Counted from the stretch's first letter, positions 18,304-31,488 are shown. The stretch: DNA of 32,000 bases from Candidatus Saccharimonadota bacterium (GCA_016699145.1 CP064962.1:1260001-1292000), one strand, 5' to 3'. Translations and numbers: made by a program. Notes: generated by a model not told the origin, from the sequence alone.

Positions 18304-18379
18304 GGGCCCGTAGCTCAGTGGTTAGAGCAGGAGGCTCATAACTTCTTGGTCGCTGGTTCAAGTCCAGCCGGGCCCACCA
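18304..18379 (+). tRNA. tRNA with CAT anticodon (elongator Met or lysidine-modified Ile2; not initiator-like), CCA encoded
   Basis: It folds as GGGCCCG-TA-GCTC-AGTGGTTA-GAGC-A-GGAGG-CTCATAA-CTTCT-TGGTC-GCTGG-TTCAAGT-CCAGC-CGGGCCC-A-CCA. The G1-C72 pair and the absence of three G-C pairs in the anticodon stem argue against an initiator. Confidence 0.85.
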
Positions 18380-19941
18380 TTATGGATAATCGGACTCTTG
18401 CACGCAGACGCAAAGGGTTCTTTTAACCTTATAGAAGTGACCTCCTTGCCCTTCACCAAAAGGTGCAATATGGAATTTCTCAAAATCTGGTCTTTTACCG
18501 CGGGTGTAGCGAATTTTAGGCTAAGAGAAAGGGTTTTTAGGAGGTTCAATAAATTTTTGTAGTCCAAGGGCTGGTCGCTCATCGATGCCTCCATGTCCTG
18601 AACGCGCGACTTGCAGGAGGCGATGAGGTTCTCAAGCCTCTTACGAGTGTCGAGGTACACTTTCTCCTCATGTTGATCCAATTGCTTCCTACGGGGAAGG
18701 ACCTCGGCTATGAGTCCATCCAGGGTGTCCTCATGCTCTTGTAGCTTGCGCTTCAATGCCGGAAGCTCCCTCGCCATCAGAGCGGTTTTTTCTCGCCGTG
18801 CCTCCTTATAGGCTTCTACATAGGCGTCGTAATCCTCTTCGCCTAGAGTGCTGAATTGGTCGAACACGGCCGCAGCCGCATCGATGATCGTCTTTGCACG
18901 AATGGTGCCAGTGTTCTCGCAGCCGAGCTTCTTTTTGTTTTGGCACCAGAACCTTAGATAGTAACCACTGTTCCCTTTGCTGATACCGCTTGTCATCGGC
19001 ATCTTGCAGCCGGCGCAAACCACTAAGCCTCGGAAGGGAATGTCATGCACATGGGCGCGTTTCTCAACGCTATTGCCCATGCCTTGTACCAAAAGCCACT
19101 CGCCCTCCTCGATCATAGGTATGAAGTCGTAGATTTGTGTTAGGTCAATCTCACGGCCGCCTTGTTCTAAGAAACCGAAATAGAACCGATCCCGGAACAT
19201 ATTTGATAACTTCTGATTGGTCATCGTTTGGGCTGCATTACCCTTTGCCTTCTCACCCTTTTTAATGATTCGACGGTAACCGTTTGCGTTTAAGTGATCG
19301 GTGATTTCAAGAAGAGATTTCCCATTGAGCCGCATCTCCCATGCGCTTTGTACCAACTCAAAAAGGTTAGGCCCGTAACCGGAGGGCGTCTCATCCGGCT
19401 CATAAAGTCCGGTCAATTCGTTGCGCGTATAGCCGGGTTTGAATTGCCCAGCGGACCTACCGAGGTCAAGGGCGCGATCTAGGCCACGGCTCACGTCGGC
19501 TCCTAGCTTGTCGCTGTATTGCTTGGCGAGTACAAAGGCAATGCCCAACCCCATTTTCCCGTTGTAATCGTTAACAAAAGAATGAGACGCAAACCGTAGG
19601 TCTACTAACAGCTTGCAATCGAGCAGATCAATGATTTCCCCGGCCTCTTTCATATTCCGCGCCAGGCGATCAGGATGCCATGCAATCAAGCCGTCCACCT
19701 CTCGCCGACGGATCTTTTTTATGAGTTCATCAAATTTAGGTCTGTTGCCGGAGTACCGAGCCGACCGACTGTCTTCGATTATGTCCTCCTTCGCAACATT
19801 GATATCCATGCGTTGGGCAATCTCCAAGCACTCGGCGAGTTGGTCCTCAATTGAGCGCACCTGTTTTTTAGGGTCATCCGTAGATTTACGGATATAAATG
19901 CAGTAGCGCTTAGCTCGAATTTCTATTGCGTCGTTCTCCAT
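18358..19941 (-). CDS. large serine recombinase (integrase)
   Basis: The N-terminal resolvase-type catalytic domain reads YCIYIRKSTDDPKKQVRSIEDQ...DSRSA...RPKFDELIKKI..VDGLIAWHPDRLARN. It is followed by a recombinase domain, a zinc ribbon (CAGCKMPMT...WCQNKKKLGC) and a coiled-coil tail. The last 7 codons and the TGA stop lie inside the tRNA. Confidence 0.85.
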   Translation of the reverse strand: MENDAIEIRAKRYCIYIRKSTDDPKKQVRSIEDQLAECLEIAQRMDINVAKEDIIEDSRSARYSGNRPKFDELIKKIRRREVDGLIAWHPDRLARNMKEAGEIIDLLDCKLLVDLRFASHSFVNDYNGKMGLGIAFVLAKQYSDKLGADVSRGLDRALDLGRSAGQFKPGYTRNELTGLYEPDETPSGYGPNLFELVQSAWEMRLNGKSLLEITDHLNANGYRRIIKKGEKAKGNAAQTMTNQKLSNMFRDRFYFGFLEQGGREIDLTQIYDFIPMIEEGEWLLVQGMGNSVEKRAHVHDIPFRGLVVCAGCKMPMTSGISKGNSGYYLRFWCQNKKKLGCENTGTIRAKTIIDAAAAVFDQFSTLGEEDYDAYVEAYKEARREKTALMARELPALKRKLQEHEDTLDGLIAEVLPRRKQLDQHEEKVYLDTRKRLENLIASCKSRVQDMEASMSDQPLDYKNLLNLLKTLSLSLKFATPAVKDQILRNSILHLLVKGKEVTSIRLKEPFASACKSPIIHNGGPGWT

Positions 19942-20423
19942 GTTTCGGGGTGAGGGTTGAATCTCATTAGTTGTTCCTTGGCCTGTTCGGACAACGGGCG
20001 GGGGTCCTTTATTTCCGGGGCTGGCGGAGGTCTTACTGCCGTAGGCGCGAATTCTAGAGGCTGCATACGTTCGAGCAGCTTTAAGGCCATTTGCGGGTCT
20101 TTTTTTGCGTGCTCGATCACTACTTTACGGAGGGCCATGTTAACTTCAAGGCGTAAGCGCTCTTTCCGCTCTCGAATCTCCGGCTGTTTTTCAATGAGCC
20201 GATAGTAGGCGGAGGGTGAAATTCCAGCATAGAGCGCGGCGTCTTTATCACTAAGGCAGTGTGCGAATGCTTCGTCGAGTTTCGAGAGCACCAGCTTCTC
20301 ATTCTTGCCATCAAAAAGAGGTCGGCCGCACTTGCAAAGCGACTTTAATTTCTTGCACCGCCTACAACTTGGAATAGTCGTTACCATACCTGTAAATTGT
20401 ATCTGAAAAATAGCAATTTTCAT
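19923..20423 (-). CDS. zinc-ribbon plus helix-turn-helix DNA-binding protein (resembles the phage small-terminase / transposase N-terminal HTH); possible regulator or directionality factor
   Basis: It reads CRRC..CKCGRP, then LSKLDEAFAHCLSDKDAALYAGISPSAYYRLIEKQPEIRERKERL. It overlaps the integrase start by 19 nt. The likely true start is M13 (ATG 20387). Confidence 0.45.
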   Translation of the reverse strand: MKIAIFQIQFTGMVTTIPSCRRCKKLKSLCKCGRPLFDGKNEKLVLSKLDEAFAHCLSDKDAALYAGISPSAYYRLIEKQPEIRERKERLRLEVNMALRKVVIEHAKKDPQMALKLLERMQPLEFAPTAVRPPPAPEIKDPRPLSEQAKEQLMRFNPHPETWRTTQ

Positions 20424-20494
20424 ATGGAAAAATTGGCTCCGGTATCCATTTTTTAGTATGCCACAACGATGGTCGCTACAAAGACTCTATAGCT

Positions 20495-21211
20495 TTAGTT
20501 CGGTAAGTAAACCTTAAACTTTGTATTCTCAATCGGGAGTTTCTTTTTCGCCTCTTTCAGCAAATCATCGAACATTCGCCCCCACTTTTCGTAATGATTT
20601 CTTAAAAAATTATGCGTTACATAAATGTTGAGCGAGGGGATAGAGTTTGAAGGCAGTTCGCCACCCACAACAACGGCTGATGCAGCGAGGCAAAACATCT
20701 TAGGGTCATTCCCCGTACAACCAGGATTTAGCAATGCCATTAGGGAAGTGATTTGTGTAGAAAGGTTATCGGGAGTTTTCCACTTATGACCATCTTTAAT
20801 AGGGTCGACGTAAGCTAAGTGTGCCGCGACTTTATCACGAAAGTCTCTTGTTCTTTGTTGGCCAATTCTCTGTAAGTCTAATCTATTTTCATCTTCTGCA
20901 ATATCCGGGTCCACATAGAAACGTAACCGTGTGACAAGTTGCATATAACTTTTTTTAATCAACCCTTCCAATAGGCCTACCTGATTAGCATAAGCGAGAG
21001 TTCTTGTTGTATTCCTTACGAAGAATGCGTTGTCCTGCAGCGCTTCGTCAGCATCAGTGTAGCGAGCAGCATCCTCTAAGAACTCTTGATTAATCCACTC
21101 CAGCCCATCGATCAACTGCTCAATTGCCGTAACTTCATGGAAGTCTGGTAGCCGATCTATAAAACCCTCATTGTACTCTATGAGAATGGTGCCCTCCTTT
21201 ATGAACTGCAT
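20495..21211 (-). CDS. hypothetical protein with a HEPN-like R-x5-H motif (candidate RNase effector)
   Basis: 238 aa, predicted mostly helical by eye. The motif FRDKVAAHLAY resembles the R[ND]K.(A)AH form of the HEPN Rx4-6H active site. There is no other support. Confidence 0.35.
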   Translation of the reverse strand: MQFIKEGTILIEYNEGFIDRLPDFHEVTAIEQLIDGLEWINQEFLEDAARYTDADEALQDNAFFVRNTTRTLAYANQVGLLEGLIKKSYMQLVTRLRFYVDPDIAEDENRLDLQRIGQQRTRDFRDKVAAHLAYVDPIKDGHKWKTPDNLSTQITSLMALLNPGCTGNDPKMFCLAASAVVVGGELPSNSIPSLNIYVTHNFLRNHYEKWGRMFDDLLKEAKKKLPIENTKFKVYLPN

Positions 21212-21255
21212 AAAAAATTTAGAGCTTCGACAATAGAATCCTCTACGCGCAAAGT

Positions 21256-21567
21256 CTACAGATTTTTGATGCTGCTTGTGATCCAGTCTTGAACTTTATA
21301 TGCGTAAGCGGTCGGGAGTTCCGCGGACCCAAGTTCTGCACCGGCCCCCATGACTTTAATGAACGATTTTGTAAAGGTGCTCTTAACAACACTCACCGTC
21401 TTCACTTCGCTCCTCGGGACACGGAACAGAACGGCACCTAGGAAGCTCCTAAATTCTAAATAGGTGTCGTCTAGCGTTAGCTTGCCGAGGACGCCGGAGA
21501 GGCCGATTTTGTACGTTTCCATGAGGGAAGGGGTTATGCGCAAAGAGGGTAGGCGGGCGTACCCCAC
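21256..21567 (-). CDS. small beta-rich hypothetical protein (bacterial PH/GRAM-like by pattern); start is either GTG 21567 or ATG 21522
   Basis: 103-aa ORF (88 aa from M16). The pattern GKLTLDDTYLEFRS...VPRSEVKTVSV resembles bPH-type domains. This is weak. Confidence 0.4.
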   Translation of the reverse strand: MGYARLPSLRITPSLMETYKIGLSGVLGKLTLDDTYLEFRSFLGAVLFRVPRSEVKTVSVVKSTFTKSFIKVMGAGAELGSAELPTAYAYKVQDWITSSIKNL

Positions 21568-21678
21568 ATACCGTCGGTCACGAAGACCTGCGATAGCGGA
21601 CCCAACCTACCCATGGCTACGCGCTATCGCGCTCATGGGCAAAGTGGGCCTTCGTGCAAAACGATATATGGGGTACGC
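21557..21678 (-). ncRNA. structured RNA element (three nested stems plus a possible pseudoknot), either cis-regulatory or a stand-alone ncRNA
   Basis: P1 pairs 21557-21570 with 21665-21678 (14 positions, 1 mismatch). P2 pairs 21579-21588 with 21647-21656 (10 positions, 1 mismatch). P3 pairs 21590-21598 with 21622-21630 (9 bp, perfect). Loop CCCATG (21610-21615) is complementary to CATGGG (21634-21639). Both mismatches are A-C or C-A on the + strand but G-U on the minus strand. No U tract follows, so it is not a terminator. Confidence 0.45.
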
Positions 21679-21721
21679 GAAAACAGTACCTCATTCAGTA
21701 GAATATTTCAATCGCACCAAT

Positions 21722-23110
21722 CTAAATGATCTTCACTGTTAGGGTGTCCATGGCTGCTACCCTCATATTCGTTTCATCTACTAAATAGCAGGTTACGAAG
21801 TGACTCCCCAGGTATTCCGTTGTTTCTGGATTGTTCCTTGTATGTCCTCTTGTGATTTCACCGCGAAGGGAATGAGCCGCTAAAGCCTGTTCGCCCGTGT
21901 TCCTGACTTTCCAGTAGAGCGTGTACCTTTCTTTGCTGTAACCCGTGCGTACCTCAAATGAGATCTTTCTTTTGTCCTTGCCACGGGTAAGGCCTTTCTG
22001 TAGTGGAAGAGACTCTGACAACCACCCTCCTGCGAAACCATCTTTCGGTTCTACCTTACCGTCGATCCTAAACTTGCTTTTGTCTCTGATTGTATTTGCA
22101 TCAATGTGAAGAGAATAGGCCTCGATCATCTCTTCGCCGGCTATAAATCGATTCAGCAAATTCAAGACCTCGTCTGAAGATGACTCTGGCTTTATTGCAT
22201 TTAACAGAACAAGACCACTCATCGCTCCGATCTTAATCACGCTTTTCTCTTCTGGCGTTAGGTCCGTTACGTACTCATCGGTGTGTCGTATTCCGTGCTC
22301 CGCTGTTTGTGCGCGGTCTAAGAAATAGGGCTCACGGAGGTAATCTTCTATGTGTATGAGCGCTGTCTTGATCGTAGTTGTAATGTTGAAACTTGGATTC
22401 CTATCCACAAGCTCTTTTACGATTTGCTCAATGTGAAAAGACTTTAGTTTGAACTCCACTCCGCCAAACTTTTCAGAACTTTTATAGGCTCGAGCCCATT
22501 TTTTTAATAACTTCGTCGCTTTCCGAAATACCTTAGAACGAGAATTTGTTATTTTAGCGGCCTCTCGGTAGCCCTTGGGATCTGTTTTGATCCAAACCAT
22601 GACCTTGTCGGCGGGCATTTCAGCATAAAACTTTTCCCGTTTGCGTCTACTCATAAGCCCTACCTCTGGGATTTCGTAAAAGGGTTCATCAAATTCATTT
22701 CTTTCGGGAAGCTCCCGTGCGGGTACCACATCGATTGAAAAATCACCCTCTCTTTCAGGAAACTCTATTACTATCGAATGCGACTGCGCGCTGATTTCGA
22801 CGGGCTCACTCAACTTTCTGTACTCGTCACGAAGGTTATCAGCCAAATCTTCTAGGACATTGTTCACGGAGATCTGTTCCGCAAGGAGAGCTTTTTTCAG
22901 CGTCTCCGGCATTACCCAGATCACGTCCAAGTCGTTCACAGGCTTTGTCGAAGTGAACCTAGCGTAAGACCCACTCTTAAAAGTACGTCCCTCGAGCATT
23001 GATTTTAACCGTTTATATTCAGCCTCTATGACATCGCGGTCTTCTTCGAGAGGAGTGCAGGAGGCATGTATAAATGATGATACAGTCGCTTCTAAATCAA
23101 CTTCATTCAT
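21722..23110 (-). CDS. SMODS/CD-NTase-like nucleotidyltransferase with an AGS-C-like C-terminal domain
   Basis: The Pol-beta NTase motif is G-S-x11-D-x-D (KSGSYARFTSTKPVNDLDVIW) and the third acidic strand is FSIDVVPA. The helical segment TDPKGYREAAKITNSRSKVFRKATKLLKKWA is as seen in CD-NTase/OAS-fold enzymes. The C-terminal roughly 110 aa (YTLYWKVRNTGEQALAAHSLRGEI...HFVTCYLVD) matches my memory of the AGS-C sensor domain. Confidence 0.6.
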   Translation of the reverse strand: MNEVDLEATVSSFIHASCTPLEEDRDVIEAEYKRLKSMLEGRTFKSGSYARFTSTKPVNDLDVIWVMPETLKKALLAEQISVNNVLEDLADNLRDEYRKLSEPVEISAQSHSIVIEFPEREGDFSIDVVPARELPERNEFDEPFYEIPEVGLMSRRKREKFYAEMPADKVMVWIKTDPKGYREAAKITNSRSKVFRKATKLLKKWARAYKSSEKFGGVEFKLKSFHIEQIVKELVDRNPSFNITTTIKTALIHIEDYLREPYFLDRAQTAEHGIRHTDEYVTDLTPEEKSVIKIGAMSGLVLLNAIKPESSSDEVLNLLNRFIAGEEMIEAYSLHIDANTIRDKSKFRIDGKVEPKDGFAGGWLSESLPLQKGLTRGKDKRKISFEVRTGYSKERYTLYWKVRNTGEQALAAHSLRGEITRGHTRNNPETTEYLGSHFVTCYLVDETNMRVAAMDTLTVKII

Positions 23111-23708
23111 AACTCGTGGTGATCATGGATACGATTACGTCATTTAATAGCCTCCCTCGCATATTGGTGACCGTTACATTCCTTTTTCTATTGATCGCAT
23201 CCCACATGGCATCCGGTATACGTTGTCCACCTTCCGTGGGGGCATATACAACTAAGGCGTCCTTGTCTCTCTGTTGGTCTAGAATGCGTTGGAAGTCTGC
23301 TGCTTGCCAATCCCTAAAGTCGACTACATAGAGTGTGCTTCCTTGGCCCCTCCCAATATCACCTGGATGAGTAATTTCTATGATGTTTTTTTCTTTAATC
23401 AAGGTCGTGTCAACCAACAAACTTTTGAGGCTCCCAATGTTTGCGTGACTGGCAAAAATAGAAATCTTACGCTTACCCATAGCGTTGCCGAATCTTATAA
23501 ATGCTGGCTTAACGCCCTTGCACCACAGCACTGCCCTGTAGATCACTGTCACGATGACGATGGCGGTGCTCACGTATCCGAGAACGTTCAAGATTTGAAG
23601 TATGACATCCATTCCGTAAATGTTTTTAGGGGAGAGGCCACTCCGTTTCAATCCGAAGCAGTCTTCGCACATATACACGAAGTTCAGGTCTATGTCCACG
23701 CATAGCAC
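23103..23708 (-). CDS. membrane-anchored protein with a cytosolic flavodoxin/REC-like (Rossmannoid) domain
   Basis: It has one long hydrophobic helix (VILQILNVLGYVSTAIVIVTVIYRAVLW). This is followed by alternating beta/alpha elements (KISIFAS, LYVVDF, ALVVYAP, NVTVTN). Its stop overlaps the NTase start as ATGAATGA. The tracked start is GTG. ATG M33 is an alternative. Confidence 0.45.
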   Translation of the reverse strand: MLCVDIDLNFVYMCEDCFGLKRSGLSPKNIYGMDVILQILNVLGYVSTAIVIVTVIYRAVLWCKGVKPAFIRFGNAMGKRKISIFASHANIGSLKSLLVDTTLIKEKNIIEITHPGDIGRGQGSTLYVVDFRDWQAADFQRILDQQRDKDALVVYAPTEGGQRIPDAMWDAINRKRNVTVTNMRGRLLNDVIVSMITTSYE

Positions 23709-23760
23709 ACCTTTGGACTAGACTCCCGCTAGAGATCAATCCCACCCAAGCTATACTGTT

Positions 23761-23964
23761 TTACTCCTCTGTGAACTTCACCCAGCGGCCACTTATATCT
23801 GTAAAGCCCTCGGCGTTCTTAGCATTGAGTGGATCCGTGGTGTCGACGCGAGAGGCGGCCTGGACGACGCTGAACAGCGTGTGCCCGACTGTGACGCCCT
23901 TCTTCTTCCGGTTGGGCTGGAGCCTTCCAAATTTTGCTTGAACGTCGATAGGTTTCTGCGACAT
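23761..23964 (-). CDS. small hypothetical protein (67 aa)
   Basis: It is the more protein-like of two overlapping frames in a locally GC-rich patch. I recognise no family. Confidence 0.3.
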   Translation of the reverse strand: MSQKPIDVQAKFGRLQPNRKKKGVTVGHTLFSVVQAASRVDTTDPLNAKNAEGFTDISGRWVKFTEE

Positions 23965-24126: not shown

Positions 24127-24180
24127 AGGCCCACCAAAAAAATTACAAAAAGTACGAAAAGTTTGCTAGATAATAGCCTT
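24127..24180 (+). repeat. junction repeat copy R1 (contains the tRNA-terminus-like GGCCCACCA)
   Basis: AGGCCCACC-AAAAAAATTACAAAAAGTACGAAAAG-TTTGCTAGATAATAGCCTT aligns to R2. Over 24141-24180, 32 of 40 positions match 25451-25497, with one 9-nt and one 2-nt indel. Confidence 0.6.
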
Positions 24181-25353
24181 CGCCACACTCTTCTTTGTTT
24201 CATCACTACTAGAATAAAGGGGGAGAGAATCGAAAACTTCAGACGGTTTTTGACCTTTTGAAAGTTCCCTCTCAATCCATCGGCGCAGGCTTTCGTAAGA
24301 CTCATATAAGTCATTAAAATCAGCATTGCGATTGGCATCGGAGACATGATAATTCACACCCCAGAGAGGTAGACTCTTGGTATACGTAGAAGCAAAGTAG
24401 GATAAGATGAATCCATCTGCAATATGGCCCAAAAGCGTCCGTAAGTCACGTAGAACTTGTCCTAACTTTTGTGAAAAACTTTCGCCCTCTCTTTTGGAAA
24501 ATAAAGCTTGAATTGCAAAGTCTCTAGAACTTTTCTCGTCGTAGCCAAGTAGTAAACCCAGAGCATGCATGCGATTTGCATCCTCTCTCTCAAGTTCAGG
24601 GCTTGTTTGCTCTACGAAAAAGTTTACAACTTGTTCAGGCGGAGATTCTTCTGTGAATCCAAATGAAGCAAAAAGAGAAGCATGCTTACGAAGGCAGTTG
24701 CGAACAGTGACGGGATTGTAAAAAAGAAAAATTTGTTTTGCTTCCGTTAGGTAAGGGTCTTTGATTTCTTTAACAAAAAAATGATCAGGGTCTTTTGCCA
24801 TAATTTTTCGCAACTGAGGCTCTAGCTCCTCTTGAGGTACATCAAGTCCACATGAATAAAATGCCACTGGTTTTAAGCCAGCTAATACGGGTGTGACAAA
24901 AGGGATCTCTCCACAAAGGGCTTCAGCTGCGAATCGATGCTCACTTGTAGCTTCTGGGGCCAAGTAAGGCCTTACATTTTCTCGTATCACAGCATCCTTT
25001 CTTTGGATTCGGTGGTCTCCTTTATAAGCTTTCCTTGGGACAAGCAAAACACTGTCTCCTTCGTGGCTCAATTCTGCGCAGTCTTCAATTTCTATTAACC
25101 CAGCAGAATATAAATTTTTTACACGCCATTTTATTAGAGGTTCATTTGAACCTGGGAGCGTATTATAACTTCCATCCAAATAGGGTAAAACCGCCCAAAT
25201 AGCTTCTTGATCAAAGTCGATTACAAGAACGGGTGGATCTGAAGAAACAAGTTCACATTTGAGAGCTTGGGCTTGCCATCTTAAAACATCAAGAAGCTGG
25301 GTGAACTTAGGATTTTCTTTTTGTGTTATTGATTCTGTTGCGGTGTCGTTCAT
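24166..25353 (-). CDS. hypothetical protein (395 aa), no recognisable domain
   Basis: Long AT-rich ORF with a strong promoter of its own. It is divergent from the methyltransferase gene. Confidence 0.6.
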   Translation of the reverse strand: MNDTATESITQKENPKFTQLLDVLRWQAQALKCELVSSDPPVLVIDFDQEAIWAVLPYLDGSYNTLPGSNEPLIKWRVKNLYSAGLIEIEDCAELSHEGDSVLLVPRKAYKGDHRIQRKDAVIRENVRPYLAPEATSEHRFAAEALCGEIPFVTPVLAGLKPVAFYSCGLDVPQEELEPQLRKIMAKDPDHFFVKEIKDPYLTEAKQIFLFYNPVTVRNCLRKHASLFASFGFTEESPPEQVVNFFVEQTSPELEREDANRMHALGLLLGYDEKSSRDFAIQALFSKREGESFSQKLGQVLRDLRTLLGHIADGFILSYFASTYTKSLPLWGVNYHVSDANRNADFNDLYESYESLRRWIERELSKGQKPSEVFDSLPLYSSSDETKKSVAKAII

Positions 25354-25417: not shown

Positions 25418-25497
25418 AAAAAATAAGTCGAGGGACCAGTGTAACTAAAAAAGTGCAGAAAGTACAAAAAGTTGAGAAAGTTTGCTACAATCGCCTT
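25418..25497 (+). repeat. junction repeat copy R2
   Basis: AAAAAATAAGTCGAGGGACCAGTGTAACTAAAAAAGTGCAGA (25418-25459) matches R3 at 34 of 42 columns with one gap. Its 3' part matches R1 and ends in TTTGCTACAAT, which is an extended -10. Confidence 0.6.
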
Positions 25498-26154
25498 ATG
25501 AATTTTGATAAATCCTGGATTCAGCTTTCGTACGAATCTCCTCAAATTGAGGTTGATGATCAGACGAATGTTCAATTCCCCATTGAGCTCCCCAAATACT
25601 TCATCGAAAAATTAACGAAGCCAGGAGATACCGTCTTCGACCCTTTTGCAGGATTCGGCACGACTTTACTGGCTGCGCAAGAATTAGGACGCATTGGAGT
25701 GGGAGTGGAGTATGAAGAAAAACGTGCCGACCATGTTCAAACTCAAATTAAAGAGCCTTCACACGTAATTCATGGAGATTCACGCGAACTTGATAAAATG
25801 GATCTACCTCAATTTGACCTGTGTTTCACCTCTCCGCCGTACATGCGTTCTTTTGACGAAGAAAATCCGCTCAGCAACTACCACGAATCAGGCAACTACG
25901 AAAATTACCTCAAAGGCATCAACGAGATTTTTCAGCAAATAAAAGGACGGATGAAACCAGGTACCTACGTGCTTGTTGAAGCCGAAAACACCTACGAACC
26001 AGGAGTCCCTATGACTCCTCTAGTCTGGGATTTGGGGCGTGAACTTTCCAAAATCTTTTTTCTTGAGCGAGAAATGATCTGCTGTTTCAAAGAAGGTGAC
26101 TTGAAAACGAGGAAGGTCAACCATAGTACGATCTTGGTTTTCAAGAATATTTAA
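25498..26154 (+). CDS. small SAM-dependent amino-methyltransferase (N4/N6 type); DNA versus RNA target unresolved
   Basis: The motifs are FPIELPKYFIEKLTKPGDTVFDPFAGFGTTLLAAQELGRIGVGVE (SAM-binding, N6_N4_Mtase-like) followed by the catalytic FTSPPY. I prefer ATG 25498 over the tracked GTG 25453 because TGCTACAAT (25483-25491) ends 6 nt upstream of it. Confidence 0.7.
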   Translation: MNFDKSWIQLSYESPQIEVDDQTNVQFPIELPKYFIEKLTKPGDTVFDPFAGFGTTLLAAQELGRIGVGVEYEEKRADHVQTQIKEPSHVIHGDSRELDKMDLPQFDLCFTSPPYMRSFDEENPLSNYHESGNYENYLKGINEIFQQIKGRMKPGTYVLVEAENTYEPGVPMTPLVWDLGRELSKIFFLEREMICCFKEGDLKTRKVNHSTILVFKNI

Positions 26155-27399: not shown

Positions 27400-30300
27400 A
27401 TGTATAGAACAGCCATTTTTATACTTTGCTTACTCGTTTTCTCGGCGGCTTTTTTTGCGTACACGCCAAAAGCATTGGCCGCCAACGGAGACCTCATCAT
27501 CACGGTCACAGATCAATTGGGGAATCCTCTCACGGGCACCAGCGTAACCGTCAATTGCAACGGCTTAGCGCTTTCTTTGGCCGATGGCTTGGATGGAGAT
27601 TTAACGGACAATGGAACCATTCGAATCCTTTCATTGACACTAGTGACTGCAAGTTGCTTGACGAATGGCGAAGCAATCACACAGTTGGATGTGTCTAAAG
27701 ATGCTTATGTAACCACAGCCGCAAGCGGAGATTTAATATGGAATTCTGGATCGGAAAACAACAATTCAGTCGCTCTCAATTTTTCTCACAAAGTCACGGG
27801 TCAAACGGAATTGGGAGCTAGCCTCACAGGAGCGACCGTCACCGTAGGAGGAATCACTTGCATAGAAAATGCGGGCACTTATTACTGCCCTACGCCTCTT
27901 GCCAGTGACGGTGGAAGTAATGATGTCATCGTCACAAAAGATGGTTACGTCACACATTTGTCCAGCTCCACCAACCGTGCGACGAATGCAACAGCACAAG
28001 CAACCTACACTTCCAGCAACGCCTTCGCTTACAAAATCACCAGCATCACAACGGAGGTGTTTTCCACGAACATCACGGGAAGCGTCAGCACATTCACCGT
28101 AGGAGACAACAGTGGACAAGACAATTGCACCCTAAATGGAGGTTCGTGGTATTGCCCTGTTTTGCTAGCGAACAGCAATGCTGAGCCAAGCGGAACCGCT
28201 ACCTTGGATGGTTACGTAAGTGAGGCCCTGGATTTGACCGGCAGTGACATACGAATAAGCAACACAGATGCACAAATTTCAACGACTTTAAGCGGAATAA
28301 AATATGCTCACAAAGTCACCGGCCAAACGGAACTTGGGGGAAGTATCACAGGGGCCACGGTCACAGTTGGAGGTACGAGCTGTGTAGAAAACAGCGGAGT
28401 TTACTATTGTCCAACTCCTTTGGCCAGCGACGGTGGAAGTAATGATGTCATCGTCACAAAAGATGGTTACGTTACACATTTGTCCAACTCCACCAACCGT
28501 GCAACGAACGCAACGGCACAAGCGACCTACACGTCCAGCAATTTATTCTCGCATAAAGTCACGGGTCAAACGGAATTGGGAGCTAGCCTCACAGGAGCGA
28601 CCGTAACAGTGGGTGGAACCAGTTGCATGGAAAACAGTGGGGTTTACTATTGCGCGACAATATTGGCCAGTGACGGTGGGACCAACGACGTGATCATTAC
28701 GAAAGATGGCTACGTGACCTACACCACGAATTCAACAAATCGCACAACAAATGCAACCGCTCAAGCGACCTACACATCCAGCAATTTATTCTCGCATAAA
28801 GTGGCCGGGCAGACGGAACTTGGGGGAAGCATCACAGGGGCAACTGTTACAGTTGGAGGAACGAGCTGCGCAGAAAACAGCGGAGTTTACTATTGTGCAA
28901 CTCCTTTGGCCAGTGACGGTGGAAGCAACGACGTGATCATTACGAAAGATGGTTACGTGACCTACACCACGAATTCAACAAATCGCGCAACAAATGCAAC
29001 CGCTCAAGCCACCTACACCTCCGGCAATTTATTCTCACATAAAGTCACCGGGCAGACGGAATTAGGAGGCAGCCTGACGGGAGCAACCGTCACGGTGGGC
29101 GGAACAAGCTGTACGGAAAGTTCTGGCACATACTACTGCGCTACTCTTCTAGCTAGCGATGGCGGAAGCAATGACGTCATCGTGACGAAAGACGGTTACG
29201 TAACTCAGTTAGCCAATTCCACCAACCGTGCAACGAACGCAACGGCACAAGCGACCTACACTTCCAGCAACGCCTTCGCCTACAAAATTACGAGCATCAC
29301 AACAGAAGTCCTATCCACGAACATCACGGGAAGCATCGGCACATTCACCGTAGGAGACGGCAGTGGACAAGACAGCTGCACGCTGAATGGAGGTTCCTGG
29401 TACTGCCCCGTACTGCTCACGAATAGTAATTTGGAACCAACCGGAACCGCTACCTTGGATGGTTACGTAAGTGAGGCCCTGGATTTGACCGGCAGTGACA
29501 TACGAATAAGCAACACAGATGCACAAATTTCAACGACTCTAGCTGGAATAAAATATGCTCACAAAGTCATCGGTCAAACGGAGCTGAATGGAAGCTTAAC
29601 GACTGCGACAGTAACAGTCGGAGGGACGTCCTGCAGCGAATCGAGTGGAGTTTACTATTGCGCCACACCACTGGCTTCAGACGGCGGAGTCAGTGACGTA
29701 GTTGTTACTAAAGATGGTTATGTGACTTACACCGCCAATTCTACAAATCGTACAACAAATGCAACTGTACAAGCCACCTATACTTCTTCCAATCCATTCA
29801 GTTACAAAATCACTACAATAAGCACAGAAGCTCTTTCTGCCAATATCACAGCTAGCGCCATAAGTCTGACCGTTGGAGATGGAACAGGGCAGAGCACCTG
29901 CACACTGAACGGAGGCTCGTGGTACTGCCCCGTTCTTCTAGCCAACAGCGACGCAGAGCCAACCGGTACAGTCACTTTAGATGGCTATGTTTCAGAGGCC
30001 ATAGACCTCACTGGAACTGGTACAAGAAGTGGAGGGACCGATGCCCAAATCAGCACTACAATAGCAGCTGTTAAATATGCTCATAAAGTCACGGGACAGA
30101 CAGAACTCAGTGGAAGCTTAACGACTGCGACAGTAACAGTCGGAGGGACGTCCTGCAGCGAATCGAGTGGAGTTTACTATTGCGCCACACCACTGGCTTC
30201 AGATGGCGGAGTCAGTGACCTAATTGTGACCAAAGATGGCTATGTGACTTACACCGCTAACTCTACCAATCGTGCGACGAATTCAACCGCTCAGGCAACG

Positions 30301-31488
30301 TATACTTCCAGCAACGCCTTCGCCTACAAAATTACGAGCATCACAACAGAAGTCCTATCCACGAACATCACGGGAAGCATCAGCACATTCACTGCAGGAG
30401 ACAGCAGTGGACAAGACAACTGCACCCTAAATGGAGGCTCATGGTACTGCCCCGTACTGCTCACGAATAGTAATTTGGAACCAACCGGAACCGCTACCTT
30501 GGATGGTTACGTAAGTGAGGCCCTGGATTTGACCGGCAGTGACATACGAATAAGCAACACAGATGCACAAATTTCAACGACTTTAAGCGGAATAAAATAT
30601 GCTCACAAAGTCACCGGCCAGACGGAATTGGGGGGCGGCCTCACCGCAGCAACTGTAACGGTGGGAGGCACGACTTGCACAGAAAATTCTGGCACCTACT
30701 ATTGCGCAACTCTCTTAGCGGACGACGGCGGTACAAACGACGTCATTGTCATAAAGGATGACTACCTTACTCACACCGAAAATTCGACCAATCGCAGCAC
30801 AAATGCCACGGTCCAAGCCCTTTATGAAATCACTTTATATTCATCTGAAGAAGAACCCGAAGAAGAGCCCGAAGATGAACCCGAGGATGAACCCGAGGAT
30901 GAACCCGAAGAACTTGAGCAAACCTCTCTCATTCAATTTCGATATTGCTACTTCGCCGATATCTCTTCTCATTGGGCAGAGCCCTACATTCTGGACTTGT
31001 GCGCGCGAAGCATAATGGACTCAAGTGAACCCTTTTTTAATCCCGATGAATTCATCACACGAGCTGAAATGGCTCAAATCACATGGATGAGTTTTGGCGA
31101 TCCCACAGCCGAAATCACCCTAGCTTCAGAATTGAAAACTTTTGAAGATGTGGCTCCCAACGATTGGTTCAGTGACTATGTGAATGGAGCTCGAACCATG
31201 GGTGCAATAGAAGGATATGCCGATGGAACCTTCCGTCCCAACCAACCACTCAACCGAGCCGAATGCATGAAAATCGTACTTTCAGCTTTGTCCTTAAGTG
31301 GAGAAATTTCCGAAGTGCCTTTTTCAGATGTGGATCAATCCGCGTGGTACGCTCCTTATATCGACTGGGCTTATCAAAACAACATCATTGATGGGAAAAA
31401 CGAAAATACTTTTGCTCCTCAAGATTTCATTACTCGTGCAGAAGTAACAAAAATAATCTCAAACATGCTCGATTATGCAAATCGTTAG
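27400..31488 (+). CDS. SLH-anchored repetitive surface (S-layer-like) protein
   Basis: It has a signal peptide (MYRTAIFILCLLVFSAAFFAYTPKALA) followed by 8 A-type and 4 B-type Ig/PEGA-like modules. An acidic (EEEPEEEPEDEPEDEPEDEPEE) linker follows. The three C-terminal SLH domains read FADISSHWAEPYI..., FEDVAPNDWFSDYV... and FSDVDQSAWYAPYI... Confidence 0.8.
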   Translation: MYRTAIFILCLLVFSAAFFAYTPKALAANGDLIITVTDQLGNPLTGTSVTVNCNGLALSLADGLDGDLTDNGTIRILSLTLVTASCLTNGEAITQLDVSKDAYVTTAASGDLIWNSGSENNNSVALNFSHKVTGQTELGASLTGATVTVGGITCIENAGTYYCPTPLASDGGSNDVIVTKDGYVTHLSSSTNRATNATAQATYTSSNAFAYKITSITTEVFSTNITGSVSTFTVGDNSGQDNCTLNGGSWYCPVLLANSNAEPSGTATLDGYVSEALDLTGSDIRISNTDAQISTTLSGIKYAHKVTGQTELGGSITGATVTVGGTSCVENSGVYYCPTPLASDGGSNDVIVTKDGYVTHLSNSTNRATNATAQATYTSSNLFSHKVTGQTELGASLTGATVTVGGTSCMENSGVYYCATILASDGGTNDVIITKDGYVTYTTNSTNRTTNATAQATYTSSNLFSHKVAGQTELGGSITGATVTVGGTSCAENSGVYYCATPLASDGGSNDVIITKDGYVTYTTNSTNRATNATAQATYTSGNLFSHKVTGQTELGGSLTGATVTVGGTSCTESSGTYYCATLLASDGGSNDVIVTKDGYVTQLANSTNRATNATAQATYTSSNAFAYKITSITTEVLSTNITGSIGTFTVGDGSGQDSCTLNGGSWYCPVLLTNSNLEPTGTATLDGYVSEALDLTGSDIRISNTDAQISTTLAGIKYAHKVIGQTELNGSLTTATVTVGGTSCSESSGVYYCATPLASDGGVSDVVVTKDGYVTYTANSTNRTTNATVQATYTSSNPFSYKITTISTEALSANITASAISLTVGDGTGQSTCTLNGGSWYCPVLLANSDAEPTGTVTLDGYVSEAIDLTGTGTRSGGTDAQISTTIAAVKYAHKVTGQTELSGSLTTATVTVGGTSCSESSGVYYCATPLASDGGVSDLIVTKDGYVTYTANSTNRATNSTAQATYTSSNAFAYKITSITTEVLSTNITGSISTFTAGDSSGQDNCTLNGGSWYCPVLLTNSNLEPTGTATLDGYVSEALDLTGSDIRISNTDAQISTTLSGIKYAHKVTGQTELGGGLTAATVTVGGTTCTENSGTYYCATLLADDGGTNDVIVIKDDYLTHTENSTNRSTNATVQALYEITLYSSEEEPEEEPEDEPEDEPEDEPEELEQTSLIQFRYCYFADISSHWAEPYILDLCARSIMDSSEPFFNPDEFITRAEMAQITWMSFGDPTAEITLASELKTFEDVAPNDWFSDYVNGARTMGAIEGYADGTFRPNQPLNRAECMKIVLSALSLSGEISEVPFSDVDQSAWYAPYIDWAYQNNIIDGKNENTFAPQDFITRAEVTKIISNMLDYANR
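27787..30846 (+). repeat. in-frame tandem module array: A = 243 nt, A+B = 522 nt
   Basis: The module starts (HKV codons) lie at 27787, 28309, 28552, 28795, 29038, 29560, 30082 and 30604. The order is AB-A-A-A-AB-AB-AB-A. A 97-nt block is identical in three B copies (28191-28287, 29442-29538, 30487-30583). Confidence 0.85.

Follow-up and report, generated by a model that had tools for sequence, protein, structure and literature searches.

CBASS (cyclic oligonucleotide-based antiphage signalling systems) are sorted by a classification that is said to come from Millman et al. 2020 and to be in use by PADLOC and DefenseFinder. The nucleotidyltransferase (NTase) of the HEPN-MNT pairs (type VII toxin-antitoxin) is minimal, about 130 aa. 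The ERIC and Correia/NEMIS elements are transcribed intergenic imperfect palindromes, and 5′ stabiliser stem-loops are elements of bacterial mRNAs. The defence repertoires of Patescibacteria are thought to be small. Transmembrane (TM) proteins (1TM, 2TM, and others) make up the commonest class of CBASS effectors (PMC12480259), and the pair of a TM effector with an NTase/AGS-C protein is listed as Type I CBASS; a Lactococcus plasmid, for instance, carries a SLATT effector paired with an NTase/AGS-C CD-NTase (PMC11381338). Here we analyse positions 20495-23708 of a 32,000-nt stretch (the window; CP064962.1:1260001-1292000, GCA_016699145.1), whose host genome is a Candidatus Peregrinibacteria of the Candidate Phyla Radiation (CPR). 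On its minus strand this interval carries a small membrane protein, a CD-NTase, a 122-nt structured element (the hairpin), a small beta-rich protein, and a HEPN-like protein, which an earlier note, made from the DNA alone, had taken for one unmatched five-part module. We consider it likely that the interval holds three functionally independent units: a CBASS pair (23612-21722), a hairpin/small open reading frame (ORF) unit (21711-21256), and a HEPN gene (21211-20495).

The four minus-strand ORFs lie where the earlier note had placed them. The 462-aa cyclase (21722-23110) matched the PADLOC Cyclase model PDLC00785 end to end (E = 2.6e-81, positions 1-447), and it also matched the Pfam families SMODS (1.8e-7, above the cut-off) and AGS_C (4.5e-19). 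Reading the translation, we find the active site intact (G47-S48-x11-D60-x-D62). Its nearest PDB sequences are the CD-NTases 6p8u/6p82 and the E. coli MS115-1 CdnC (6p80). These matches bear out the proposal, made from the G-S-x11-D-x-D motif and the C-terminal tail, of a signalling-type CD-NTase with an AGS-C tail. The start of the cyclase overlaps the stop of its neighbour by 8 nt, and the overlap reads ATGAATGA, as had been reported from the sequence; the two genes are taken to be translationally coupled.

That neighbour, the effector, is identical to the NCBI entry IPG41_07000. It matched the PADLOC model PDLC00664, 'Effector 1TM' (E = 3.5e-50, profile positions 12-172 of 174), and more weakly Mem_04 (E = 5e-5), a family whose authors suspected a diverged CARF domain; a comparison with PDB sequences found no relative. 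We describe the protein as an N-terminal TM helix followed by a cytosolic Rossmann-like domain, which is possibly CARF-like. More than 220 relatives were collected; many of their hosts are Patescibacteria, and others are Ktedonobacteraceae, Vicinamibacterales, and Sulfuricellaceae. Because these relatives mostly have 164-175 aa, the true start of the window protein is most likely M33 (ATG at 23612), giving 169 aa (23103-23612); the longest ORF reaches 23708. Hence the membrane anchor and the Rossmann-like domain described earlier stand, and the length of 201 aa is probably an overestimate.

In every relative examined, the effector directly adjoins a SMODS cyclase, and these loci represent five independent contexts (11 loci, labelled here L009-L014 and L016-L019). 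The partner in L018 and L019 is a 475-aa SMODS+AGS_C cyclase, with the architecture seen in the window. The hairpin, the PH protein, and the HEPN protein are absent from all of these effector-cyclase loci. Within 18.3-26.2 kb of the window, no ORF gave a Pfam or PADLOC match to Cap2/Cap3 (E1/E2/JAB), HORMA/TRIP13, or other ancillary genes. Since matches to both the PADLOC cyclase model and the 1TM effector model define Type I CBASS, the effector and the cyclase are a canonical two-gene Type I CBASS, and the description of the locus as unmatched does not hold. The pair resembles the described Type I systems in having only two genes with overlapping frames, a CD-NTase with GS...DxD and an AGS-C tail, a small membrane partner, neither Cap2/Cap3 nor HORMA/TRIP13, and full-length PADLOC matches for both proteins. 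It differs from the Lactococcus pair in its CPR host (Peregrinibacteria) and in its effector, which belongs to the '1TM' family and not to SLATT. By analogy with characterised systems, the cyclase would be activated upon phage infection and make a cyclic oligonucleotide; the cytosolic Rossmann-like domain of the effector would bind it, and the effector would then damage the membrane and abort the infection. The locus is a clear-cut case of a Type I CBASS from Peregrinibacteria, with an effector family that is common across Patescibacteria.

A repressor with LexA_DNA_bind and Peptidase_S24 domains lies immediately upstream of the effector in seven of the loci compared, from CPR and other hosts (L009, L010, L013, L014, L016, L018, and L019). 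This arrangement suggests a DNA-damage-responsive control, analogous to CapH/CapP. Unlike its CPR relatives, which usually have the LexA-like S24 repressor upstream, the window pair is without it.

We then consider the 238-aa protein at the other end of the interval (20495-21211; identical to NCBI IPG41_06985). An exhaustive profile search gave a family of about 88 clusters, with proteins of about 235 aa. The sole invariant columns in an alignment of 51 sequences are R125 and H131, the candidate catalytic residues, within the motif F-R-[ND]-K-V-x-A-H. Sub-threshold matches to Pfam HEPN_AbiU2 were obtained for 14 of the 51 members (best score 26.6 bits vs a cut-off of 26.8), and the alignments cover the motif region (profile positions ~100-147). 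For the window protein itself, searches of Pfam, PADLOC, and NCBIfam gave no match, and structure searches returned no solved or confidently matched fold. The AlphaFold2 model (pLDDT 95.1) places R125 at a helix end and H131 in the next loop. A survey of HEPN proteins describes an Rx4-6H motif that spans a helix end and the start of the following loop, with a polar residue after R, and reports restriction-modification (R-M) clusters as the context of AbiU2 (Anantharaman et al. 2013, PMC3710099). One relative of the window protein (L004) sits inside an MmeI/Eco57I-type R-M cluster beside AbiEii. The HEPN-like character that had been proposed from FRDKVAAH agrees with the two invariant residues and with the sub-threshold HEPN_AbiU2 matches of the relatives.

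Judging from these sequence comparisons, we read the 238-aa protein as a stand-alone AbiU2-like HEPN RNase, a single-gene cargo that is neither a CBASS component nor half of a HEPN-MNT pair. Its family is probably best seen as a sister of AbiU2 (Pfam PF18734), on the border of that family. The two have in common an invariant R-x5-H with N or D after R, a stand-alone protein of about 235 aa, and relatives in R-M or defence neighbourhoods, and the position of the motif in the AlphaFold2 model may be a further likeness; they differ in that neither the window protein, which has no match, nor its relatives reach the gathering score. The protein is predicted to be a metal-independent RNase that would serve as a single-gene abortive-infection or toxin-type defence. 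With HEPN-MNT the locus shares a HEPN-motif protein and a nucleotidyltransferase in one neighbourhood. However, the window NTase is a 462-aa CD-NTase that has its own effector and lies about 0.5 kb off, and a promoter-like site, an RNA, and another gene stand between the two; the HEPN relatives have no NTase near them in four independent contexts. What emerges is an AbiU2-like HEPN family, about 88 clusters in size, which Pfam, NCBIfam, and PADLOC have missed.

The arrangement of the three units becomes visible when the window is compared with a sister island, L001, at the identical tRNA-Met/suf-operon site. The island ends share 89% nucleotide identity, and the serine integrases share 95% amino-acid identity. 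A 155/166-aa gene, a 67/74-aa gene, an orphan methyltransferase (MTase), the hairpin, and the small ORF are also common to both islands. Performing blastn, we find backbone blocks conserved at 81-89%, and the gaps between these blocks fall at the CBASS pair (21683-23733) and at the HEPN gene (20339-21281). At the position of the CBASS pair, L001 has a 278/296-aa gene and a DUF6941 gene (L001:5081-6366), and at that of the HEPN gene, a 270-aa gene with an N-terminal SEC-C-like Cys motif (L001:6836-7648). The CBASS and HEPN units occupy two cargo slots on either side of the hairpin/small-ORF unit. The L001 slot genes are candidate defence genes by position and went unrecognised in all libraries; for the 278/296-aa protein we noticed a faint HamA/DUF1837 hint (E = 0.006).

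Variable anti-phage 'hotspots' are described for integrative elements such as the P2 prophages and P4 satellites (PMC9122126). The likeness lies in a conserved backbone bearing an integrase and in slots that swap unrelated defence genes between close elements. The differences are that the present island has a large serine recombinase at tRNA-Met, a CPR host, and a size of only ~8-9 kb, that it is without recognisable phage or satellite genes, and that one slot edge is a structured RNA unit. This small two-slot serine-integrase island at tRNA-Met is an example of cargo swapping, and its sister island supplies candidate defence genes.

Comparing 19 loci by tblastn, we obtained a matrix in which the effector occurs only with the cyclase, the small ORF only with the hairpin, and the HEPN family alone. 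In none of the other loci do the homologues of the five parts occur together, so the five-part module proposed earlier falls apart; this outcome and the match to a named system are two that the earlier note had itself named as telling against its hypothesis. Locus L002 combines the small ORF with a divergent hairpin and lacks both CBASS and HEPN; L001 likewise has neither the CBASS pair nor the 238-aa gene. A single new system of CBASS-like or HEPN-NTase type, built from all five elements and with the product or modifying activity of the NTase working through the RNA and/or the HEPN protein, would be suggested by their common orientation and tight packing on one strand, all inside a mobile island, and by the reality of both the RNA and the HEPN motif. 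Against it, the effector and cyclase are already a complete named system that recurs without the other parts, L001 and L002 keep the hairpin and the PH ORF and lack CBASS and HEPN, the hairpin occurs without the PH ORF in a further locus (L015), and HEPN relatives are never beside an NTase in the contexts examined; moreover, between the cyclase and the RNA stands a promoter-like site, and the homology breakpoints fall exactly between the parts. Taking both sides together, we regard one such system as very improbable, and we found nothing in support of the earlier idea that the RNA and/or the HEPN protein acts downstream of the NTase. The idea of a new CBASS or HEPN hybrid that contains an RNA fails, and no new signalling architecture is needed. 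Two points weigh against the division into three units: only 4-5 contexts were sampled per family, and adjacency in one genome leaves room for a local functional cross-talk that may exist between the neighbours.

The unit between the two slots contains what we consider the most interesting part of the locus, a structured leader that is strongly conserved, strand-specific, and moves between genes. The 122-nt element (21557-21678, minus strand) is a nested inverted repeat, which had rightly been noted as a nested-stem RNA, and it folds better than 200 of 200 shuffled sequences (z = -3.7). Its architecture consists of a 19-bp P1, an internal loop, a 7-bp P2, and a three-way junction with a long P3 and a short P4. 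The minimum free energy of the window hairpin is -73.4 kcal/mol for the sense strand vs -58.2 kcal/mol for the antisense strand, with 8 G.U pairs. Four copies (window, L001, L015, and L002) are known, from two lineages with one four-helix topology; the sense strand is favoured by 5-16 kcal/mol in all four, with 4-8 G.U pairs. The Rfam search of the window brought only two tRNAs to the gathering score, and the interval 21450-21760 at E<=10 gave noise only (mir-425, 17 bits vs a cut-off of 60).

The window and L001 hairpins differ at 6 of 122 positions (95% identity), vs 76% identity for the adjacent ORF. The L015 copy lies on a metagenome contig that was found by a 26-mer of the hairpin. It is 90-92% identical over about 150 nt, and its flanks are unrelated: upstream are a DUF3892 gene and a divergent pair of HTH and M78-peptidase genes, and downstream is an unrelated 173-aa gene. 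The conservation among the window, L001, and L015 continues through a pyrimidine-rich 3′ tail, which in the window spans 21523-21556 (minus strand) from the hairpin to the start codon, up to CATGG(A/C)AAC, where it stops in L015; the ATG of the 173-aa gene stands at the same position. Scans with 26-mers and 18-mers for further copies gave one metagenome contig only, and none in the genome and viral collections.

The L002 copy, about half identical in sequence, folds alone to the identical topology of P1, internal loop, 7-bp P2, and P3/P4 junction. Its P2 carries two compensatory pairs (CACGAAG/CUUCGUG in the window, CACAGAG/CUCUGUG in L002). A covariance model (R1), for which the window and L001 supplied the sequences, missed L002 under the default filters and found it with the filters off; its single best match in L002 is the hairpin site (E = 0.009), and the next best has E = 0.88. 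The alignment with L002 by MAFFT/RNAalifold was out of structural register and unusable for pair counts. The two lineages each show complementarity between the P3 apex and the P4 region, with different sequences (GCGAUAGCG/CGCUAUCGC vs GAAUUGG/CCAAUUC). Between these complementary segments (window 21589-21646, L002:3860-3915), kissing loops or mutually exclusive folds would be possible.

Across the copies of the window, L001, and L015, hairpin positions 71-120 do not vary (positions 71-122 correspond to window 21557-21608), and almost every substitution falls in the 5′ half. The sole change in the 3′ half is G121 to A in L015. Such an invariant 3′ half suggests a sequence-specific constraint beyond pairing.

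Each of the four copies has, upstream, a -35 hexamer, a 17-nt spacer, and a -10 hexamer, an arrangement that ends 4-6 nt short of the hairpin. In the window it occupies 21683-21711 (minus strand) and ends 4 nt before base 1 of the hairpin. The hexamers are TTGAAA/TACTGT in the window, TTGAGG/TAGGCT in L001, TTGAAG/TAGGTT in L015, and TTCACT/TATGAT in L002; in the three close copies, the diverged 5′ flank has no conserved clusters other than TTGA and (G)TA...T. This promoter-like site would start transcription at the foot of the 122-nt four-helix RNA. The RNA would then form the 5′ leader of the 88-aa PH-fold protein, in a separate transcription unit (21711-21256) that belongs to the island backbone. 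Promoter, leader, and start codon together would make a portable cassette of about 155-185 nt, which would also head the unrelated gene in L015. We conclude that the hairpin is most likely a portable promoter with a structured 5′ leader acting in cis, and most likely the leader influences how stable the mRNA is or how translation starts.

Several observations count against this conclusion. The promoter-like site is a weak match to the consensus (7-9 of 12 positions), below the threshold of a generic scanner, and its support comes mainly from its conserved position. Formal covariation is insignificant on the three close copies, which show a single double change; as high a score was reached by 161 of 500 shuffles. 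Only two lineages carry the hairpin so far. The structural case rests on one divergent copy (L002), the folding energies, and the strand asymmetry.

The main rival to the leader is a hairpin that acts mainly as DNA, either as a mobile or recombinogenic palindrome (like MITEs, the miniature inverted-repeat transposable elements, or like ERIC and Correia elements) or as a boundary for cargo exchange. The 90-95% identity across unrelated flanks, well above the 76% of the adjacent ORF, would fit such a role, as would the long terminal inverted arms and the homology breakpoints at the edges, with variable cargo on both sides. On the other hand, there is one copy in the 32-kb window, the perfectly conserved 26-mer occurs in one metagenome contig and in none of the genome and viral collections, and no target-site duplication was seen. 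The conservation is also asymmetric, including about 35 nt on the 3′ side up to the start codon and the promoter-like 5′ flank, and the structure is strand-specific, with its 4-8 G.U pairs and the sense advantage of 5-16 kcal/mol; attC boxes are absent, and there is no tyrosine recombinase. We therefore find a DNA-level role unlikely. Compared with ERIC, Correia, and stabiliser elements as they are generally known, the hairpin is similarly an intergenic imperfect palindrome of about 120 nt, predicted to be co-transcribed with the downstream gene and conserved across different flanks. It differs from them in being apparently low-copy, in having its own promoter-like site and a tail conserved up to the start codon, and in its branched four-helix fold with complementary loops, which is not a simple hairpin.

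The genes upstream of the hairpin raise another explanation, in which the RNA, alone or together with the PH-like protein, would regulate or insulate the upstream defence cargo, as a processing or termination signal or as an infection-responsive switch, and would thus be a generic accessory of the slots and not one specific to CBASS. The hairpin does lie directly downstream of a candidate defence gene in three copies (the cyclase in the window, DUF6941 in L001, and DUF3892 in L015), and the P3/P4 complementarity in both lineages would allow kissing loops or alternative folds. However, the upstream gene in L002 is divergent, on the opposite strand, and no U-tract terminator follows the hairpin. 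The three-way junction is fully stacked, with no strands resembling a ligand pocket, so that a riboswitch-like pocket is unsupported, and only four copies are known. Control of the upstream cargo hence seems quite unlikely to us.

Returning to the portable leader acting in cis, we also weigh a broader view in which promoter, RNA, tail, and start codon would constitute a new portable class of structured RNA in CPR islands. It would provide signal-responsive control via the P3/P4 loops, or mark a junction for cargo exchange, with the PH protein as its usual partner. We put this forward as a speculation that is more probably wrong than right by a good distance.

The layout of L015 (346-2383) is, in order, a divergent pair of XRE-HTH and M78/ImmA-IrrE genes, DUF3892, the hairpin unit, and the 173-aa ORF, which is a TM or lipoprotein-like protein. 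A CapH/CapP-like pair facing a DUF3892 operon is a described layout (bioRxiv 10.1101/2022.04.27.489752). After the 173-aa ORF come a Cas4-like PD-(D/E)XK nuclease and an HsdS fragment.

Other readings of the hairpin region were tried and rejected. A 151-aa gene call runs through the hairpin in L001; the window has stops there, and the three homologues of the small ORF share ATG + METYK, so the extension is the palindrome being read. On the antisense strand, an Arg-rich frame stays open across the hairpin in the window, L001, and L015, and its substitutions are mostly non-synonymous and its starts inconsistent. Sequestering of the start codon by the P3 segment CCAUGAG is possible in the window, but the pairing is not kept in L001. 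The R″/R′ boxes of an integron attC site (RYYYAAC ... GTTRRRY) are absent at both ends on either strand, and the recombinase is a serine enzyme, with no tyrosine/IntI recombinase. A type III toxin-antitoxin (ToxIN-like) does not fit either, as 21557-21721 has no direct or tandem repeats and the downstream protein is PH-like, not ToxN-like.

The small ORF downstream of the hairpin (21256-21522, minus strand; identical to NCBI IPG41_06990) codes for 88 aa. The earlier note had given 88-103 aa; the ATG with METYKIGLSG is the start common to all three homologues, and the GTG extension to 103 aa runs into the hairpin, which leaves the 88-aa version as the supported one. Comparing the ORF with that of L001 (76% identical), we count 37 synonymous and 12 non-synonymous codon changes, differences of 12/3/47 at the three codon positions, and third positions changed in 47 of 86 codons. 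By this substitution pattern, it is a real gene under purifying selection. Its family has three members including itself among 5.8 billion proteins (the two non-self members are those of L001 and L002), and peptide-pattern scans of the genome, metagenome, and viral collections gave no further copies. The AlphaFold2 model (pLDDT 89.8) has seven strands (E2-E70) and a C-terminal helix (71-86). Searching the PDB with Foldseek, we obtained mostly PH/PTB/GRAM domains among the top 50 (probability ~1.0, TM-scores 0.5-0.65). The model thus predicts a PH-like fold, a seven-stranded beta-sandwich capped by a C-terminal helix, in agreement with the beta-rich character noted before. There is no match to Pfam bPH, and the PH likeness is at the fold level only.

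The three units are carried by an island that spans from tRNA-Met (18304-18379, plus strand, found by the tRNA search) up to the gap between the MTase end (26154) and an SLH protein (27400), about 8-9 kb in size; the suf operon flanks the other side. Next to tRNA-Met is a large serine recombinase of 527 aa (18358-19941, minus strand; Pfam Resolvase, Recombinase, and Zn_ribbon_recom), so the earlier view of the locus as cargo of a serine-integrase island proves correct for this CPR genome. At 18358-18379 the integrase ORF and the opposite-strand tRNA-Met overlap by their 3′ ends, and L001 is alike; the integration site is therefore within or at the tRNA gene. A Zn-ribbon/HTH-like protein of 166 aa (19923-20423, minus strand) follows at this island end.

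Beyond the effector, a backbone ORF of 67 aa (23761-23964, minus strand) is common to the window and L001 (79% amino-acid identity). The orphan N6/N4 DNA MTase (25453-26154, plus strand; Pfam N6_N4_Mtase) is kept in both islands (L001:3942-4634, 81% nucleotide identity), with no recognisable restriction enzyme beside it. Strong AT skew accompanies the region that codes for a 1362-aa protein with three C-terminal SLH domains (27400-31488, plus strand); this is probably a cell-surface or S-layer protein of the host, and it marks the island end. Between the 67-aa backbone ORF and the MTase sits a 395-aa gene (24166-25353, minus strand) that is specific to the window and not in L001. It may be a third cargo gene, and its sole hint is a weak match to the NACHT N-terminal helical domain 6 (E = 0.009).

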